The translations under genes were made by a program, and so were the position numbers. From assembly GCA_937143345.1 (NCBI GenBank), contig CAKZRD010000004.1, positions 1 to 52,132 of the forward strand: DNA of 52,132 nucleotides, in the 5' to 3' direction. The notes under the pieces were generated by a model. The model made no database searches. It saw only the letters and a list, made by a program, of their open reading frames with translations, and was not told the origin of the DNA. Positions 2,487 to 32,234 of the stretch are shown here, piece by piece. This DNA is from an uncultured archaeon (GTDB lineage Archaea; Nanobdellota; Nanobdellia; Pacearchaeales; GW2011-AR1). Positions within the stretch are counted from its first letter, which is position 1. Each line of letters opens with the position of its first letter.

Positions 2487-3551
2487 TTATTGATTTTTAT
2501 ATTCCTCAACTTTGTCCTCAAAATAAACCAATTCAATTCCAGCCCTTTCAAACATTTCTTCGCTTTCTTTTGCTGCGTGATATTTTTTTTCACAAACAAC
2601 CCTCTTGATTCCCGAATTTATTATCATCATAGCACAAGTTCTACAAGGAGTCATTTTACAATAAAGAGTAGCACCTTCTATAGAAATTCCAAGTTTTGCT
2701 GCTTGGCAGATAGCATTTTGTTCTGCATGAATAGTTCTTACACAATGTGTTGTAACCTTTCCGTCTTCGTGAATAATTTTTTTAAACAAATGTCCAACTT
2801 CGTCGCAATGTGGAAAACCTTTCGGAGAACCAACATAACCAGCAACTAAAAGATGATTGTTTTTTGCTATAACACAACCGCTTCTTCCCCTATCACATGT
2901 AGCTCTTTTTGCAATCGTCTTACAAACTTCCATAAAATATTCATCCCACGAAGGTCTTTTATAGTTAGTAATTCCCTCTCCACGATTAATCGATTCTTCT
3001 TTTGTCGTTTCTTTTAATAAGATATATTCTACTTTTGTTTTTAATGTCTCAATAGAAGAATCATTTAAAATTAAATAATCCGAATTCTCAAGACAAAGTT
3101 TAACCTGTTGTCCTTCCTCTTTTTCTCCTATTCCAAAATCTCTTTCTTCCATCTTTTTAAATTCTTCAAGTGTTTTCGGGTCACTCTCTCTTTTTCTCGC
3201 CAAAATTCTTTCAAATCTTTTTTCTACAGGAGCATCAACACCGATAATAATCCCATTTTGTTTTTTAATTTCTTGAATTTCTCCCAAATTTCTTATTCCG
3301 TCGATAACAATATCTTTTTTTTCTCTTGCTTCTTTTAAGCATCTTTTAACTAATTCGCCTTTTCCAAATTTTTCTCTTATCTTGTTTCCTATATCTTGCA
3401 AATCTTTAATAGTATAATTGTTAATTCCCATTTCTATCGCTTCTTTTCTAACCTCGTCCGAAGTAGAAAGATAAAAAAAACCTTTTTCTCTTAAAATTTC
3501 CGCCACAATTCCTTTTCCAGCTCCTTTTGTTCCAGTTATTCCGATTATCAT
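2487..3551 (-). CDS. P-loop nucleotide kinase (dephospho-CoA/NMP kinase-like) fused to dCMP deaminase
   Basis: GITGTKGAGKG P-loop and IDGIRN in the N-half; RPSWDEYFM, HAEQNAI and PCRTC Zn motifs in the C-half. Start moved to ATG 3551 (ATGA overlap with nrdG stop). Confidence 0.9.
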   Translation of the reverse strand: MIIGITGTKGAGKGIVAEILREKGFFYLSTSDEVRKEAIEMGINNYTIKDLQDIGNKIREKFGKGELVKRCLKEAREKKDIVIDGIRNLGEIQEIKKQNGIIIGVDAPVEKRFERILARKRESDPKTLEEFKKMEERDFGIGEKEEGQQVKLCLENSDYLILNDSSIETLKTKVEYILLKETTKEESINRGEGITNYKRPSWDEYFMEVCKTIAKRATCDRGRSGCVIAKNNHLLVAGYVGSPKGFPHCDEVGHLFKKIIHEDGKVTTHCVRTIHAEQNAICQAAKLGISIEGATLYCKMTPCRTCAMMIINSGIKRVVCEKKYHAAKESEEMFERAGIELVYFEDKVEEYKNQ

Positions 3552-4255
3552 ACTCTTATTAAAATTTCCTCGCAAAGATTTTCTTTTTCTAATTCTTTCC
3601 TTATATTCTTTAAATAATTTTCTTCTGTGTTTTTTTCTTCTTTAAATTTTTTATCGATATATTTTCCTTCGTTTCTAAAACCTTGCAAACAAAATCTTTT
3701 TATTTTTTTTCCTACAACAGAGTTAATCCATTTGATTTCCTCAATAACGCTTTTCTCTTCGTGAAATTTTTTTAAAATTGTTGTTCTAAATTCATAATCA
3801 TTTAAAGAAGAAATAATCTTCATACTTTCTTCAATTTTATTTAAATCTGCATTAACATTTGTTATTTTTCTATAATCTTCTTTCTTTCCTTTAACATCCA
3901 TTGAAACATAATCAACAAGAGAATTATTAATGAAAAATTTTAGTTTTTCAGGAAAACTTCCATTTGTATCAATTTTTATTTTATAACCAAAAGATTTTAT
4001 TTTTTTTAAAAAATTTTCTTCTAAACTAACTAACGGTTCTCCGCCAGTTATACAAACACCTTCCAATTGACCCTTTCTCTTTTCTAAAAAATTAAATATT
4101 TCATTTAAATCGATGTCAGGAGTTTTTTCTTCTAAGACAAGTTCCGGATTATAACAAAAACTACAACGAAAATTACAGCCGAATAAAAAAATAGTACAAG
4201 CTATTTGTCCCGGATAATCAACCAAAGTTGTTCTCTGTAGATATTTTATTTTCAT
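3548..4255 (-). CDS. nrdG: Anaerobic ribonucleotide reductase activating enzyme (radical SAM)
   Basis: VDYPG, CNFRCSFC (CxxxCxxC), ITGGEP, KIDTNG; in the nrdD operon. Confidence 0.93.
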   Translation of the reverse strand: MKIKYLQRTTLVDYPGQIACTIFLFGCNFRCSFCYNPELVLEEKTPDIDLNEIFNFLEKRKGQLEGVCITGGEPLVSLEENFLKKIKSFGYKIKIDTNGSFPEKLKFFINNSLVDYVSMDVKGKKEDYRKITNVNADLNKIEESMKIISSLNDYEFRTTILKKFHEEKSVIEEIKWINSVVGKKIKRFCLQGFRNEGKYIDKKFKEEKNTEENYLKNIRKELEKENLCEEILIRV

Positions 4256-4374
4256 TCTATTTTGAATTTTGATCTATCAAAAAATTCGGCTCTTTTTCCT
4301 TCATTCCATTGCTCTACTGGGCGAATGTAGCCGCAAATTCTTGAATAGACCTCACATTTTGTCCTCTTTTTCAT
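4252..4374 (-). CDS. Stand-alone NrdD glycyl-radical peptide (40 aa)
   Basis: Manual translation MKKRTKCEVYSRICGYIRPVEQWNEGKRAEFFDRSKFKIE; YSRxxGY glycyl-radical motif; GAGGAGGT just upstream; ATGA overlaps at both ends. Confidence 0.9.
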   Translation of the reverse strand: MKKRTKCEVYSRICGYIRPVEQWNEGKRAEFFDRSKFKIE

Positions 4375-6419
4375 TTTACCTCCTCATTTAATTCGAAAGG
4401 TTCACCTTCGTGATAATCATTTTCCAAGTCACATTTAGGGCAATATTCGTGTTCTCCTTCCAAATAACCATGTATTGGGCAGATAGAAAAACTAGGTGTT
4501 AAAGTAAAATACGGAAGCTTGTAATTTTGGCAAACTTTTTTAACAATATTTCTCGCGGCTTCCCAAGAAATTTTTTCTCCTAAAAAAGCATGAAAAACAG
4601 TTCCGCCAGTGTATTTTGTCTGAAGTTCGTCTTGTAAATCAAGTGCTTCAAACAAATCATCCGTGTAATTAACAGGTAAATGTGTTGAGTTTGTATAGTA
4701 AGGATGCGCATTTTTTTCGCGAATATCTTTTTCATTGGCAACAATTATTTTTCCTCCAAATCTTTTTTTATCTAATCTTGCAAACCTATAAGTTGTTCCT
4801 TCACCAGGTGTCGCTTCTAAATTATAGATATTTCCAGTTTCTTTTTGATATTCTTCTAATTTTAATCTCATAAAATCTAAAACTTTTAAAGCAAATTTTC
4901 TTCCTTTTTCTGTTGCAATGTTTTCTCCAGGCATAAAATTAATTATCGCCTCATTAATTCCAAGCAAACCTATTGTAGAAAAATGATTTTTCCAATATTG
5001 ACCAAAACGCTGTTTAACTTGTCTTAAATAAAACTTGCAATAAGGATAAAGCCCTTGCTCTGTTAGTTTTTCTATAGTTTTTCTTTTTATCTCTAAACTT
5101 TCCTTTGCCAATTCCATTAATTCTTTAACTCTTTTTAGGAAATCTTCTTCATTCGAAGATAAAAAACCTATTCTTGCCATATTTATTGTAACTACGCCGA
5201 TGCTTCCGGTTTGTGGATTAGCTCCAAATAAACCCCCACCCCTCTTTCTTAATTCTGTTTGATCTAACCTTAATCTACAACACATACTTCTCGCATCTTC
5301 TGGATTCATATCTGAGTTTATAAAATTAGAAAAATAAGGAATTCCATATTTCGCAGTCATTTCCCATATAGGTTTATATTCTTCATTTTCCCAATCAAAA
5401 TCTTTTGTGATGTTGTATGTTGGAATAGGAAAAGTAAAAACTCTACCAGCAGCATCTCCTTCAAGCATAGTTTCTGCAAAAGCCTTGTTTATCATTTTCA
5501 TTTCTTTTTCAAAATCCTTATAACATTCTTTTTTTGGAATTCCTCCGATAATTACTGGTTCGTCTTTTATGTAGTTAGGAACTTTTAAATCAAGAGTTAT
5601 ATTTGTAAAAGGTGTTTGAAAACCAACTCTCGTCGGCACAGCTAAATTAAAAATAAATTCTTGCATAATTTGTTTAATACCCTTATAGTCTAAATTATCA
5701 TATCTTGCGAAAGGTGCTAAAAGAGTGTCAAAATTTGAAAATGCTTGTGCACCAGCAGTTTCTCCTTGTAATGTGTAAAAGAAGTTAACAATTTGTCCGA
5801 GAGCTGTTCTTAAATGTTTTGCAGGAGCAGATTGAACTTTTCCCTTAACTCCTTTAAAACCAACACTCAGCAAATCTTTCAAATCCCATCCGACGCAATA
5901 AGCCCCAAGAGTTCCTAAATCATGTATGTGAAAATCCCCATCTTCATGAGCTTTTCTTATACTTTCAGGATAAATTCTCCTCAACCAATAATTTTGAATT
6001 ATTTTCGTTGCGATGTAATTGTTTAAACCTTGTAATGAATAACCCATATTTGAATTTTCTTTAACCATCCAATCATTCATTCCGATGTAATCTTCAACAG
6101 CTTCAATTGTGTCAAAAAGCCCTTTAACATAACGAAGTTCTTCTCTAGATTTTCTATACAAAATGTATGCTTTTGCTGTTTGATCATGTCCCCTTTTAAT
6201 TAAAGTTTCTTCGACAATATTTTGGATATCTTCAACACCAGGAATTCCGTTTTCTCCGAATCTTTCATTAACTTTTTTTACAACTTCTTCTGAAATTTCC
6301 CTTGTTTTTTCTTTATTTTCTCCACCAACAGCACGGACAGCTGCCCAAACAGCATTGAAAATTTTATCTGGATTAAATAAAACAACACTTCCATCTCTTT
6401 TTCTTATTTTTGTTACCAT
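4371..6419 (-). CDS. nrdD: Class III ribonucleoside-triphosphate reductase catalytic subunit lacking C-terminal glycyl-radical segment
   Basis: N-terminal ATP cone, HIHDL, AYC, SMCCRL finger loop, EATPGE, YTGGTVFH, CPIHG..CPKC Zn site. Confidence 0.95.
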   Translation of the reverse strand: MVTKIRKRDGSVVLFNPDKIFNAVWAAVRAVGGENKEKTREISEEVVKKVNERFGENGIPGVEDIQNIVEETLIKRGHDQTAKAYILYRKSREELRYVKGLFDTIEAVEDYIGMNDWMVKENSNMGYSLQGLNNYIATKIIQNYWLRRIYPESIRKAHEDGDFHIHDLGTLGAYCVGWDLKDLLSVGFKGVKGKVQSAPAKHLRTALGQIVNFFYTLQGETAGAQAFSNFDTLLAPFARYDNLDYKGIKQIMQEFIFNLAVPTRVGFQTPFTNITLDLKVPNYIKDEPVIIGGIPKKECYKDFEKEMKMINKAFAETMLEGDAAGRVFTFPIPTYNITKDFDWENEEYKPIWEMTAKYGIPYFSNFINSDMNPEDARSMCCRLRLDQTELRKRGGGLFGANPQTGSIGVVTINMARIGFLSSNEEDFLKRVKELMELAKESLEIKRKTIEKLTEQGLYPYCKFYLRQVKQRFGQYWKNHFSTIGLLGINEAIINFMPGENIATEKGRKFALKVLDFMRLKLEEYQKETGNIYNLEATPGEGTTYRFARLDKKRFGGKIIVANEKDIREKNAHPYYTNSTHLPVNYTDDLFEALDLQDELQTKYTGGTVFHAFLGEKISWEAARNIVKKVCQNYKLPYFTLTPSFSICPIHGYLEGEHEYCPKCDLENDYHEGEPFELNEEVK

Positions 6420-6420
6420 C

Positions 6421-6834
6421 TTATTGAACTATTTTTTCTAAGTTATTTAGTATTCCAGAATATCTTTTCTCTTCTTCTGTTAAAAAAGTTCTTCCTAACC
6501 ATTTAAAGATATAATCAACTATAGAGTTTGCTTTAGGGATTTCTTCATTGCCAGTATATCCGCTAGGTTCAAAGTAGGTATTTGAAAATTTTCTTACTAG
6601 CTCTTTAAGTGGAACACCATATTGCAAACAAAGAGAGATAGCGATTCCGAAAGAGTCCATTACACCCCCAAGAGTACTTCCTTCTTTTGCCATAGTTATA
6701 AAAATTTCTCCAGGTTTTCCATCTTCATAAAGACCAACATTTAGATAACCTTCATACCCACCGATAGAAAATTTATGGATTAGCGAATTTCTTGTTGTAG
6801 GCAATCTTCTTCTGTAAACCTCTTCCTCATCCAT
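6421..6834 (-). CDS. Stand-alone TSCPD domain protein (homologous to class II RNR NrdJ C-terminal region)
   Basis: RRRLP..HKFSIGG.EGYL.VGLYEDG.PGEIFITMAKEGST..LQYGVPL..FEPSG..SIVDYIF matches the NrdJ C-terminal/TSCPD region. Confidence 0.85.
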   Translation of the reverse strand: MDEEEVYRRRLPTTRNSLIHKFSIGGYEGYLNVGLYEDGKPGEIFITMAKEGSTLGGVMDSFGIAISLCLQYGVPLKELVRKFSNTYFEPSGYTGNEEIPKANSIVDYIFKWLGRTFLTEEEKRYSGILNNLEKIVQ

Positions 6835-7282
6835 TTTTTAATCTGATTAAATTTTTTAATTCTTCTTTAAAATCTTCAATATCGGCGAATTCTCTATAAA
6901 CAGAAGCAAATCTTATATATGAAATTTTGTCTAATTTTTTTAGTTTTTTCATCACAATTTCTCCTATTTTTTTTGATTCTATTTCTTTACCCTTAGAGAT
7001 TTTATAAACTTCAGATTCTATTTCAGAAACAATTTTTTCTACTTGTTCAGAACTTATTTGCCTTTTTTCAATCGCTTTTTCTATTCCTTTTTTTACTTTT
7101 CCAATATCAAAATCCTGTCTAGAACCATCTTTTTTTATAACTTTTAATTCGACTTCTATTCTCTCGTATGTTGTGAACCTTTTTTTACATTTAAGACACT
7201 CCCGTCTTCTTCTTGTTATATTTTTTATGTCTCTTTTATCAACAACTCTTGTTTCTTCATGTTGGCAAAAAGGGCATTTCAT
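6827..7282 (-). CDS. nrdR: Transcriptional repressor NrdR
   Basis: MKCPFC..RRRREC..CKKRFTTYE Zn ribbon, ATP cone, YIRFASVYREF. Confidence 0.97.
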   Translation of the reverse strand: MKCPFCQHEETRVVDKRDIKNITRRRRECLKCKKRFTTYERIEVELKVIKKDGSRQDFDIGKVKKGIEKAIEKRQISSEQVEKIVSEIESEVYKISKGKEIESKKIGEIVMKKLKKLDKISYIRFASVYREFADIEDFKEELKNLIRLKNG

Positions 7283-32066: not shown

Positions 32067-32234
32067 TGCTCCCACCGGGATTCGAACCCGGGTTATCACC
32101 GATCTCCGTATCACCTCGAGAAGGAAAATTTCTTCCAGAGATGTAGTTTCCATAAAGGAAGAAAGCTTCTGTCTCATCGACGCTGCCTTCACTACTTGAG
32201 AGGGTGATGTCCTTGGCCTCTAGACTATGGGAGC
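32067..32234 (-). tRNA. tRNA-Glu(CUC) with 95-nt intron at position 37/38 (intron 32102-32196)
   Basis: GCTCCCA/TGGGAGC acceptor stem, TCACC/GGTGA anticodon stem, CTC anticodon; BHB motif: CUCU(32-35) pairs with intron GGAG, two 3-nt bulges, outer helix GUA/UAC. Confidence 0.92.

Follow-up and report, generated by a model that had tools for sequence, protein, structure and literature searches.

A class III ribonucleotide reductase gene in two pieces: the glycyl-radical loop of an archaeal NrdD is encoded by a separate 40-residue open reading frame

Introduction

Can the glycyl-radical loop of an anaerobic ribonucleotide reductase be encoded apart from the chain that holds the active site? The question is raised by a contig of 52,132 nt from an uncultured archaeon of the Pacearchaeales in the phylum Nanobdellota (GenBank assembly GCA_937143345.1, contig CAKZRD010000004.1), which we call the window and which was analysed at its full length. 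On its minus strand, from 7282 to 2487, the window carries a tight string of genes, i.e., nrdR, a TSCPD gene, nrdD for a class III ribonucleotide reductase (RNR), a 40-aa open reading frame (ORF), the activase gene nrdG, and a kinase-deaminase fusion. The 40-aa ORF between nrdD and nrdG carries the motif on which the glycyl radical of such an enzyme would sit. We consider it very probable, judging from the sequences compared here, that the two ORFs encode an obligate two-subunit class III RNR which arose by gene fission and in which the radical domain is supplied in trans.

Class III RNR is an essential and much studied enzyme, and its described members bear the glycyl radical on the active-site chain. 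In the NrdD of Thermotoga maritima (PMC4493059), a Zn ion is held by a CxxxHx6CxxC motif, the Zn ribbon comes after the last barrel strand and before the Gly loop, and it is believed that the activase can get at the buried Gly only once the C-terminal domain has moved a long way. The break in the window falls exactly between that Zn ribbon and the Gly loop. Elsewhere among glycyl-radical enzymes, a June 2026 review names the formate lyases as the only class with known spare-part proteins (PMC13450708).

Results

The two pieces are collinear with a whole NrdD

The large subunit of nrdD (4371..6419, minus strand) is 682 aa long and comprises an ATP-cone, a catalytic barrel and a Zn ribbon. It matches positions 1-531 of the 562 in the Pfam family NRDD (PF13597) with 616.1 bits (cut-off 26.2) and the NCBIfam model NF006126 with 1037.7 bits (cut-off 548), while the ATP-cone domain (residues 4-93, 6141..6410 on the minus strand) is matched by Pfam PF03477 with 81.9 bits. 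Its C-terminus reads C647-P-I-H650-x9-C660-P-K-C663, followed by 19 mostly acidic residues. This C647-x2-H650-x9-C660-x2-C663 ligand motif (4431..4481, minus strand) was assigned by reading the sequence. No RxxGY loop was found in the 682-aa ORF, either in its sequence or in the profile match, which ends at position 531. An earlier sequence-only reading of the window had said that nrdD ends just past its Zn site with no glycyl-radical loop, and the profile bears this out.

The missing part is found on the small ORF (4252..4374, minus strand), the product of which is MKKRTKCEVYSRICGYIRPVEQWNEGKRAEFFDRSKFKIE, 40 aa in length. This peptide matches positions 530-562 of the same Pfam family (E 1.4e-10, 40.9 bits, against the same cut-off of 26.2) and positions 549-580 of the 581 in TIGR02487, and every NCBIfam model that it matches is an NrdD model. 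With NRDD positions 1-531 on the large ORF and 530-562 on the peptide, the ORF pair is exactly collinear with a whole NrdD. The S-R-I-C-G15-Y stretch of the peptide aligns with RIVGY of T. maritima NrdD, and both the Zn ribbon of the large ORF and the radical motif of the small one are collinear with that protein. The codon of Gly15, the presumed radical site from its place in the RxxGY motif, is at 4330..4332 on the minus strand.

The small ORF is equipped to be translated by itself, as the sequence-only reading had already noted. Its Shine-Dalgarno (SD) sequence, GAGGAGGT (4378..4385, minus strand, per sequence reading), lies within the 3' end of nrdD, 3 nt before the peptide ATG (4372-4374). 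That ATG overlaps the nrdD stop TGA (4371-4373) as ATGA, and a second ATGA (4252-4255) joins the peptide stop to the ATG of nrdG, so that the peptide gene is coupled to both of its neighbours in the manner first described. Relative to nrdD, the small ORF is in the -1 (equivalently +2) frame, again as that reading had it.

By its profile match, by the presence of both a Zn ribbon and an RxxGY motif and by its nearby NrdG, the locus belongs with NrdD. It departs from NrdD in that barrel and radical loop are not on a single chain, being separated by the stop at 4371-4373 and a change of frame. In the window's own genome (89.7% complete), we found no second PF13597 match, no match to the class I/II family PF02867 and only the one radical loop.

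Junctions in related genomes differ in frame and spacing

Two explanations would deny the small ORF a product of its own. It could be an artefact or a pseudogene, if an ordinary nrdD had been misassembled by 1 nt or had lately been inactivated by a frameshift; the source is a draft assembly (554 kb in 31 contigs), and a locus elsewhere (L136, discussed below) does resemble such an error. Alternatively, a programmed -1 ribosomal frameshift at GTA_AAA_TGA, a site that the sequence-only reading had pointed out as able to join the two frames, would yield a one-piece NrdD without the small ORF being an independent gene. The small frame is indeed at -1, the stop comes after an A-AAA run, and shortly upstream there is an SD-like GAGGAGG.

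Both explanations can be judged from the junctions of related loci. Among 61 genomes of relatives (own genome included), 30 have an NrdD match. Within the genus, a match is present in seven of the eight other genomes, and in all seven it consists of a main match ending near position 531 and a separate small match. At 15 such loci, each small ORF has its own ATG and AGGAGG-type site, with frame offsets of 0, 1 or 2 and a distance from the nrdD stop to the ATG of -29 to +20 nt. The closest relatives differ from the window and from one another: loci L011 and L012 read TAA, 11 nt, ATG; L015 has a 20-nt gap; L009 has an offset of +1 and a 16-nt gap; and in L010 the ATG lies 1 nt past the nrdD stop (the start-picking rule of the 65-locus table described next took an upstream ATG for L010, hence its tabulated gap of -137). 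At the nearest public loci, from Candidatus Pacearchaeota, the peptides are 86-87% identical and the NrdD tails are as in L011 and L009.

A further 100 regions were picked from a table of 401 genomes of the phylum, taking in all split, all in-frame-stop and most fused cases and leaving out two unpublished genomes. The 128 NrdD large ORFs examined in total were thus chosen from match tables and are not a random sample. These 128 copies comprise 65 split ones, 54 fused ones and nine in which no radical loop was found (partial or divergent). The same split is thus present well beyond the window, and its close relatives are not all fused. The frame offset is 0 in 12, 1 in 28 and 2 in 25 of the 65 split loci, gaps range from overlaps up to +1259 nt, and the window-type ATGA overlap is present in eight; none of the 65 lacks a separate start for the small gene. 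With all three frames in use and so wide a range of gaps, neither one slippery site nor one sequencing error fits.

A frameshift is very improbable on other grounds as well. GTA_AAA_TGA is no X_XXY_YYZ heptamer, and the SD lies 1-2 nt from it, as opposed to the 10-14 nt upstream at which an SD stimulates -1 shifts (e.g., in dnaX). Junction sequences differ even within the genus, and split loci keep their own ATG or alternative start. An error or a recent inactivation is, if anything, even harder to credit. The same layout recurs in independent assemblies, in those seven other genomes of the genus and in many further genera, with differing junctions; both ORFs are under purifying selection, with a mean column identity of 71% in the large subunit; and an SD and an ATG stand exactly at the point of restart. 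As far as sequence comparison can establish it, a real, ancient and recurrent two-piece arrangement of the class III RNR gene is confirmed. What the sequence-only reading held of the split (that it is real, old and conserved, with the radical Gly on a separate peptide) therefore stands, and its suggestion that a frameshift might join the frames does not, as the split loci share no common slippery site.

The peptide is conserved, under selection and preceded by a strong ribosome-binding site

In a 33-codon core compared among 23 window-type peptides (253 pairs), synonymous differences are saturated, with a median of 0.86, and non-synonymous ones have a median of 0.21; against the window, the dN/dS of the peptide is 0.06-0.18 where estimable. 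The peptide is under purifying selection. Both peptide alignments show no variation at C7, R12, G15, Y16, R18, P19, K27, E30 and R34; G15 is present in 23 of 23 rows of the first (A1) and 28 of 28 rows of the second (A3). On the large subunit, the finger-loop motif S378-M-C-C-R-L383 is invariant in all 28 split-type sequences, and C647, H650, C660 and C663 are invariant in the alignment of large subunits (A2).

In front of 61 of the 65 peptide starts, at least 5 nt match AGGAGGTGA; such a match stands before 15 of 51 starts of nrdD and before 50 of 1300 randomly chosen positions. The comparison is mildly circular in that the start-picking rule favoured SD-bearing sites, although most peptides have a single candidate start.

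Several proteins carry additions at the C-terminus. The radical peptides of L013, L014, L019, L020, L035, L037, L065-L067 and others end in Cys-rich tails (CGC, CAC, CCSC, C-x-C-x-C), which recall the pairs of redox-active Cys at the C-termini of class I/II RNRs; the window peptide is without such a tail. In the 139-aa radical peptide of L044 (L044:2920-3336, plus strand), a glutaredoxin domain that contains T-C-P-N-C (Pfam Glutaredoxin, 28 bits) comes after the loop. Among fused NrdDs, those of L086, L095, L098, L099 and L104 have C-terminal extensions of ~125 aa.

The split is widespread in the phylum and occurs in bacteria

In the 401-genome sample of the phylum, PF13597 is matched in 115 genomes, in 110 of them over the cut-off. 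About 53 of these 110 NrdD-bearing genomes are split according to the match table as read by eye, 44 with a main match ending at positions 516-540 and nine with an in-frame stop; the fused tally in the 110 takes in two unpublished genomes (G380 and G304). All nine in-frame-stop cases were fetched (L069-L077), and in each the large ORF runs to a stop and is followed by a peptide ORF that has a start of its own. Two split genomes, G431 and G152, also carry a fused copy. Many NrdD large subunits of the phylum, split and fused alike, contain intein-like in-frame insertions of 300-450 aa (L028, L129, L130, L131, G227, G234, G327, G185, G338, G201 and G373).

A phmmer search with the peptide against 1.84 billion cluster representatives gave 2898 matches at E <=0.001, and 149 of the best 150 are 41-174 aa long. 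Of 171 short proteins fetched, 134 are short, with an initial Met and without a CxxC upstream of the motif. Another six start with Met and have a CxxC upstream, 11 lack a Met start, and 20 carry motif variants missed by the regular expression. Some such peptides have been gene-called publicly and named anaerobic RNR by JGI; as far as can be told, these public peptide ORFs are visible but uninterpreted.

A search of named genomes returned at least 600 matching stretches, the best 80 of which were classed, partly by hand inspection. These 80 comprise 25 split loci, 46 fused ones, four fused at a contig edge, two fused with an extra copy and three short ones with no large ORF nearby. Eleven of the 25 split loci are archaeal (Pacearchaeota, Woesearchaeota, Micrarchaeota, Nanobdellota and unnamed). 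The other 14 are bacterial and include Candidate Phyla Radiation (CPR) groups such as Saccharibacteria, Dojkabacteria, Falkowbacteria and Veblenbacteria, as well as three Bipolaricaulota, one Hippea, two metagenome-assembled genomes (MAGs) labelled Gammaproteobacteria and one Saccharicrinis, the last an apparent assembly frameshift.

The chain is broken at three points, and the split has no single origin

By the ends of their pieces, the 65 split loci fall into three types (T1 to T3, with 33, 19 and 13 loci, respectively). In T1, to which the window belongs, the break lies past the complete Zn ribbon, and all four canonical Zn ligands are on the large subunit. In T2, the last Cys is absent from the large subunit, the end of which reads ...H-x-x-C-P-[YHF], while its peptide starts with M-x-K-C-G-x-K-[CT]-E-V-Y-S-R, so that at least one Zn-ribbon Cys has moved to the peptide. 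The T3 loci belong to a distant NrdD subfamily. Their large subunit ends past the first C-x-x-C knuckle, and their peptide bears the second (M..K-C-x-x-C-G-S-x-N-V-Y-G-[MI]-S-R-V-V-G-Y); with the knuckles divided between the chains, the Zn site must be built from both.

Trees were made from the large subunits with the radical-loop columns removed. In the FastTree tree (128 rows), the distribution of split and fused copies needs at least 14 changes, and 13 changes of the fused label are forced by well-supported branches; in the IQ-TREE tree (58 rows), 12 changes are needed and 11 forced. A tree constrained to keep all T1 and T2 rows in one group is worse by 1060 log-likelihood units (approximately unbiased (AU) test, p 1.4e-48), the T1 + T2 group having been named for this test after the first tree was seen. 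A single origin of the split is rejected, and at least 11 switches between split and fused are needed. As the trees are unrooted, gains are indistinguishable from losses.

Some T3 loci have spacers of 221-1259 nt between the pieces (L064:1456-1785, L065:1424-2682, L066:1424-1941 and L068:1765-1985), which hold same-strand ORFs of 92-170 aa. A mobile-element origin was considered for these spacers and set aside: a Pfam scan of five ORFs from the spacers of L064-L066 assigned no family to any of them (one match, at E 0.097, was under the cut-off) and gave no endonuclease or intron signature.

A docking model places the peptide on the Zn ribbon

We modelled residues 105-682 of the large subunit together with the peptide and Zn in three runs. 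The complex scored 0.84, 0.86 and 0.85, compared with 0.01 for the best control; in a benchmark, 58 of 80 solved complexes attained the score mark, as did 2 of 110 mismatched pairs. The runs have at least 97% of contacts in common, a partner pLDDT (predicted local distance difference test score) of at least 84 and an interface of 182-189 contacts. The model pairs residues 5-10 of the peptide with the ribbon strands of the large subunit (residues 644-648 and 656-663) and sets Cys7 beside C647 and C660. Since structures of one-piece NrdD have been solved, passing this test shows likeness to them and not binding.

The nearest solved relative for the C-terminal part is T. maritima NrdD, with which the Zn ribbons align (4coi). 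We considered Cys7 of the peptide as a required completer of the window's Zn site and rejected it, the large subunit already having the ligand set equivalent to that of T. maritima; Cys7 itself aligns with Val in T. maritima and with Ile in P. copri NrdD. From its place in the model, Cys7 may still serve as a fifth Zn ligand or swap with His650.

We infer binding, activation and activity of the two pieces from their sequences, and propose that they would work as follows. The peptide, which comprises the whole radical loop and the helix after it, would bind the large subunit non-covalently, with its N-terminal strand (T5-Y10) added onto the strands of the Zn ribbon. The S-R-I-C-G15-Y loop would then dip into the barrel and rebuild the normal NrdD active site in trans. 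NrdG would abstract a hydrogen from Gly15 of the bound peptide, the radical would move to the finger-loop cysteine, and nucleoside triphosphates would be reduced as they are by one-piece NrdD. Cleavage by O2 at the radical glycine would destroy the peptide only, and the large subunit would be reusable.

Some points weigh against a working two-piece enzyme of this kind. The complex may have passed in docking because the model had learnt the structures of fused NrdDs (4coi, 1h78 and 8p23), and a 40-aa peptide with neither a covalent tether nor a Zn ligand of its own may bind weakly. Cells of DPANN archaea may scavenge deoxynucleotides; given this and a genome that is 10% incomplete, the argument that the only RNR must be functional is not compelling alone. 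Lastly, the apparent split of L136, from the Saccharicrinis MAG, is probably an assembly frameshift (the small ORF has no start of its own, the frames overlap by 191 nt, and sister genomes are fused), and some public split calls elsewhere are probably not real either.

Four bacterial genomes carry an extra radical domain beside an intact NrdD

Four bacterial genomes (G457-G460), namely two MAGs labelled simply 'bacterium', one Parcubacteria and one Thermodesulfobacteriota, have an intact one-piece NrdD and an additional protein of 87-140 aa that combines a small Zn ribbon with a second radical loop. The genes of these mini-proteins, located by profile matches to NRDD positions 503-562, are at L165:2658-2921, L176:2697-2960, L160:2315-2614 and L167:2249-2611, all on the plus strand. 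L165 and L176 have the extra gene placed between nrdD and nrdG. The other two carry it on a separate contig, and that of L160 runs over the end of a gene for a FUR-family regulator. By analogy, a mini-protein beside an intact NrdD is the GrcA/YfiD arrangement for a class III RNR. The extra copies mean that a free radical domain is kept even where the enzyme needs no completion.

Neighbouring genes in the window

The operon is headed by nrdR (6827..7282, minus strand), which encodes a repressor with a Zn ribbon and an ATP-cone (Pfam Zn_ribbon_NrdR 61.6 bits, ATP-cone 79.2 bits) and lies upstream of nrdD at most related loci. Here, a repressor gene typical of bacteria stands at the head of an archaeal nrd operon. 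Next comes a gene (6421..6834, minus strand), overlapping nrdR by 8 nt, for a stand-alone TSCPD protein of 137 aa (Pfam TSCPD 50.5 bits) that is like the C-terminal part of class II RNR (NrdJ); it matches positions 739-868 of the 960 in NCBIfam NF005122 with 170.8 bits, far under the cut-off of 859. The protein lacks the cysteines of the TSCPD motif, having ...A-N-S-I-V-D... instead, and among related loci such a gene lies between nrdR and nrdD only in L001, L009, L011, L012, L013 and L020.

Downstream of the peptide gene is nrdG (3548..4255, minus strand), for a radical-SAM activase (TIGR02495 NrdG2 185.2 bits, cut-off 131.15; Pfam Radical_SAM), which follows the peptide gene directly here and also comes after it at most related loci. 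Its end is overlapped by 28 nt by a gene (2487..3575, minus strand) for a P-loop kinase-like domain fused to a dCMP/cytidine deaminase (Pfam dCMP_cyt_deam_1 87.9 bits, AAA_18/AAA_17), and a kinase-deaminase gene follows nrdG in L011-L013, L015, L017, L019 and L020 as well. Together, nrdG and the kinase-deaminase gene downstream of it are part of a deoxynucleotide-metabolism operon. Elsewhere in the window, an Rfam tRNA match of 168 nt (32067-32234, minus strand, 48.4 bits) with no ARAGORN call probably represents a tRNA gene interrupted by a long intron, as would suit an archaeon. The genome also encodes ribosomal protein S3Ae, and in 14 control genomes this family matched the four archaea and no others. 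From S3Ae and the nearest public loci, we take the organism to be a DPANN archaeon and not a bacterium, and the phylum sampled above to be its own. A 16S search of the genome gave no match.

Discussion

The window's enzyme shares a great deal with one-piece NrdD, as known from phage T4 (1h78), E. coli, T. maritima (4coi/4u3e) and P. copri (8p23). All belong to the common family of PF13597, NF006126 and TIGR02487, and they have in common the ATP-cone, the finger-loop Cys, the Zn ribbon before the Gly loop, the RxxGY motif and the adjacent NrdG (PMC4493059). In contrast to them, the window's chain is broken between Zn ribbon and loop; the solved or described NrdDs that we found are all single-chain.

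Three known systems come close in other ways. GrcA (YfiD), a protein of ~127 aa, and its T4 counterpart Y06I are, like the peptide, small glycyl-radical proteins. They act in trans and are activated by the activase of the enzyme that they serve (PMC13450708). GrcA is homologous to the C-terminus of pyruvate formate-lyase (PFL) and backs up a PFL that keeps its own loop, whereas the window peptide is of the NrdD type, a Pfam scan at E <=0.01 having returned PF13597 only and no PFL-type Gly_radical family. A parent enzyme with a loop of its own is found beside the mini-proteins of G457-G460 and not in the window, where the large subunit has no loop and the peptide is thus obligatory. In the class II RNR NrdJa/NrdJb of Pseudomonas aeruginosa, two adjacent genes likewise place a C-terminal module on a second chain (PMC9669993, citing Crona et al. 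2015). That class is B12-dependent, however, and the separate piece has IscU-like and Zn-finger domains, thought to serve re-reduction, and no radical site.

Phages offer the third likeness. The nrdA of Aeromonas phage Aeh1 is split by a homing endonuclease gene, the nrdD of T4 is interrupted by a group I intron, and both are functional. Such genes in pieces are similar to some T3 loci, which have ORFs between the pieces; the window has no spacer.

Within the literature covered, which left subscription journals, RNRdb and supplementary files outside, we found no split NrdD and no NrdD-type spare part, and neither is mentioned in the accessible parts of PMC9669993, PMC4390871, PMC13450708, PMC9531940 and PMC11528403. 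The two-piece NrdD arrangement, common as it is among microbes with small genomes, seems to be undescribed so far.

Why should the gene be split at all? One answer is neutral fission, in which the linker between Zn ribbon and loop tolerates a stop and a restart that became fixed by drift in symbionts with reduced genomes and small populations, the two pieces forming a permanent complex that works as ordinary NrdD does, with no benefit from the division. We regard this as a balanced case, as easily right as wrong. Many genes of Nanoarchaeum are split, DPANN lineages in general are known for split genes, and the NrdD split is itself concentrated in DPANN archaea and CPR bacteria. At L069, L071, L073 and L074, where the gap is 0, the split gene is one stop codon followed by an ATG away from a fused one; a one-stop difference makes switching mutationally easy in both directions, which could alone give the many changes on the trees. 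Fused and split copies also coexist in close relatives and even inside single genomes (G431 and G152). Drift accounts less readily for the splits outside these groups (the three Bipolaricaulota and one Hippea loci), for all breaks lying in one narrow region with the loop always the freed piece, for near-universal strong ribosome-binding sites, which imply that the restart is maintained, or for spare copies beside intact genes, which imply usefulness in some organisms. As to breaks elsewhere, the 128 large ORFs are otherwise whole or intein-interrupted, no systematic search for such breaks having been made.

The other answer is that the radical part is replaceable, i.e., that a peptide cleaved by O2 is swapped for a fresh one of 40 aa (which NrdG may activate apart from the enzyme), the 682-aa subunit is saved, and selection keeps the split. 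This is a tentative proposal, and we hold it to be possible though on balance unlikely. It draws on the repeated change of state (at least 11-13 times on the NrdD trees, with a single origin rejected), on the three distinct break points and on an SD that is much stronger for the peptide gene (61/65) than for nrdD (15/51). The four bacterial genomes with a GrcA-like extra mini-protein, one of them overlapping a FUR-family gene, make the idea plausible, and the rescue of PFL by GrcA is established (PMC8683613 and PMC13450708). On the other hand, the modelled interface is large, and in two of the three types (T2 and T3) each piece supplies part of the Zn ligands; such an interface and a shared Zn site would fit a complex that is stable and bridged by metal. 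The strength of the ribosome-binding site may serve only to provide equal amounts of the pieces, the SD comparison carries the mild circularity of start choice noted above, and DPANN genomes have split genes in any case.

A still wider proposal, about which we are likewise doubtful, is that the peptide is an exchangeable radical cofactor that would be activated by NrdG while free, would dock in any empty large subunit, would be shed and renewed once O2 had cleaved it, and would have been selected repeatedly in episymbiotic archaea and bacteria of oxic-anoxic boundaries, splitting NrdD many times. The mini-proteins would then be the counterpart of GrcA, and all would form one widespread family of autonomous glycyl-radical carriers.

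Whatever the reason for it, the two-piece gene has consequences. Pipelines that skip ORFs of 40 aa can be expected to call such NrdDs truncated or to overlook their radical site, misleading metabolic reconstructions of DPANN and CPR organisms. A radical subunit of 40 residues would be open to chemical synthesis with site-specific isotopes or unnatural residues, which would make electron paramagnetic resonance (EPR), recognition by the activase and radical transfer testable. Access to the activase would also differ: the loop of a one-piece NrdD must flip out of the barrel, and a free peptide needs no such motion. In an essential enzyme the described members of which keep radical and active site on one chain, the radical domain is free-standing in about half of the phylum's NrdD-bearing genomes and in several bacterial lineages, and GrcA-like spare copies of it occur as well. 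If the peptides do prove to be exchangeable cofactors, they would be previously unrecognised autonomous glycyl-radical carriers for the synthesis of DNA precursors.

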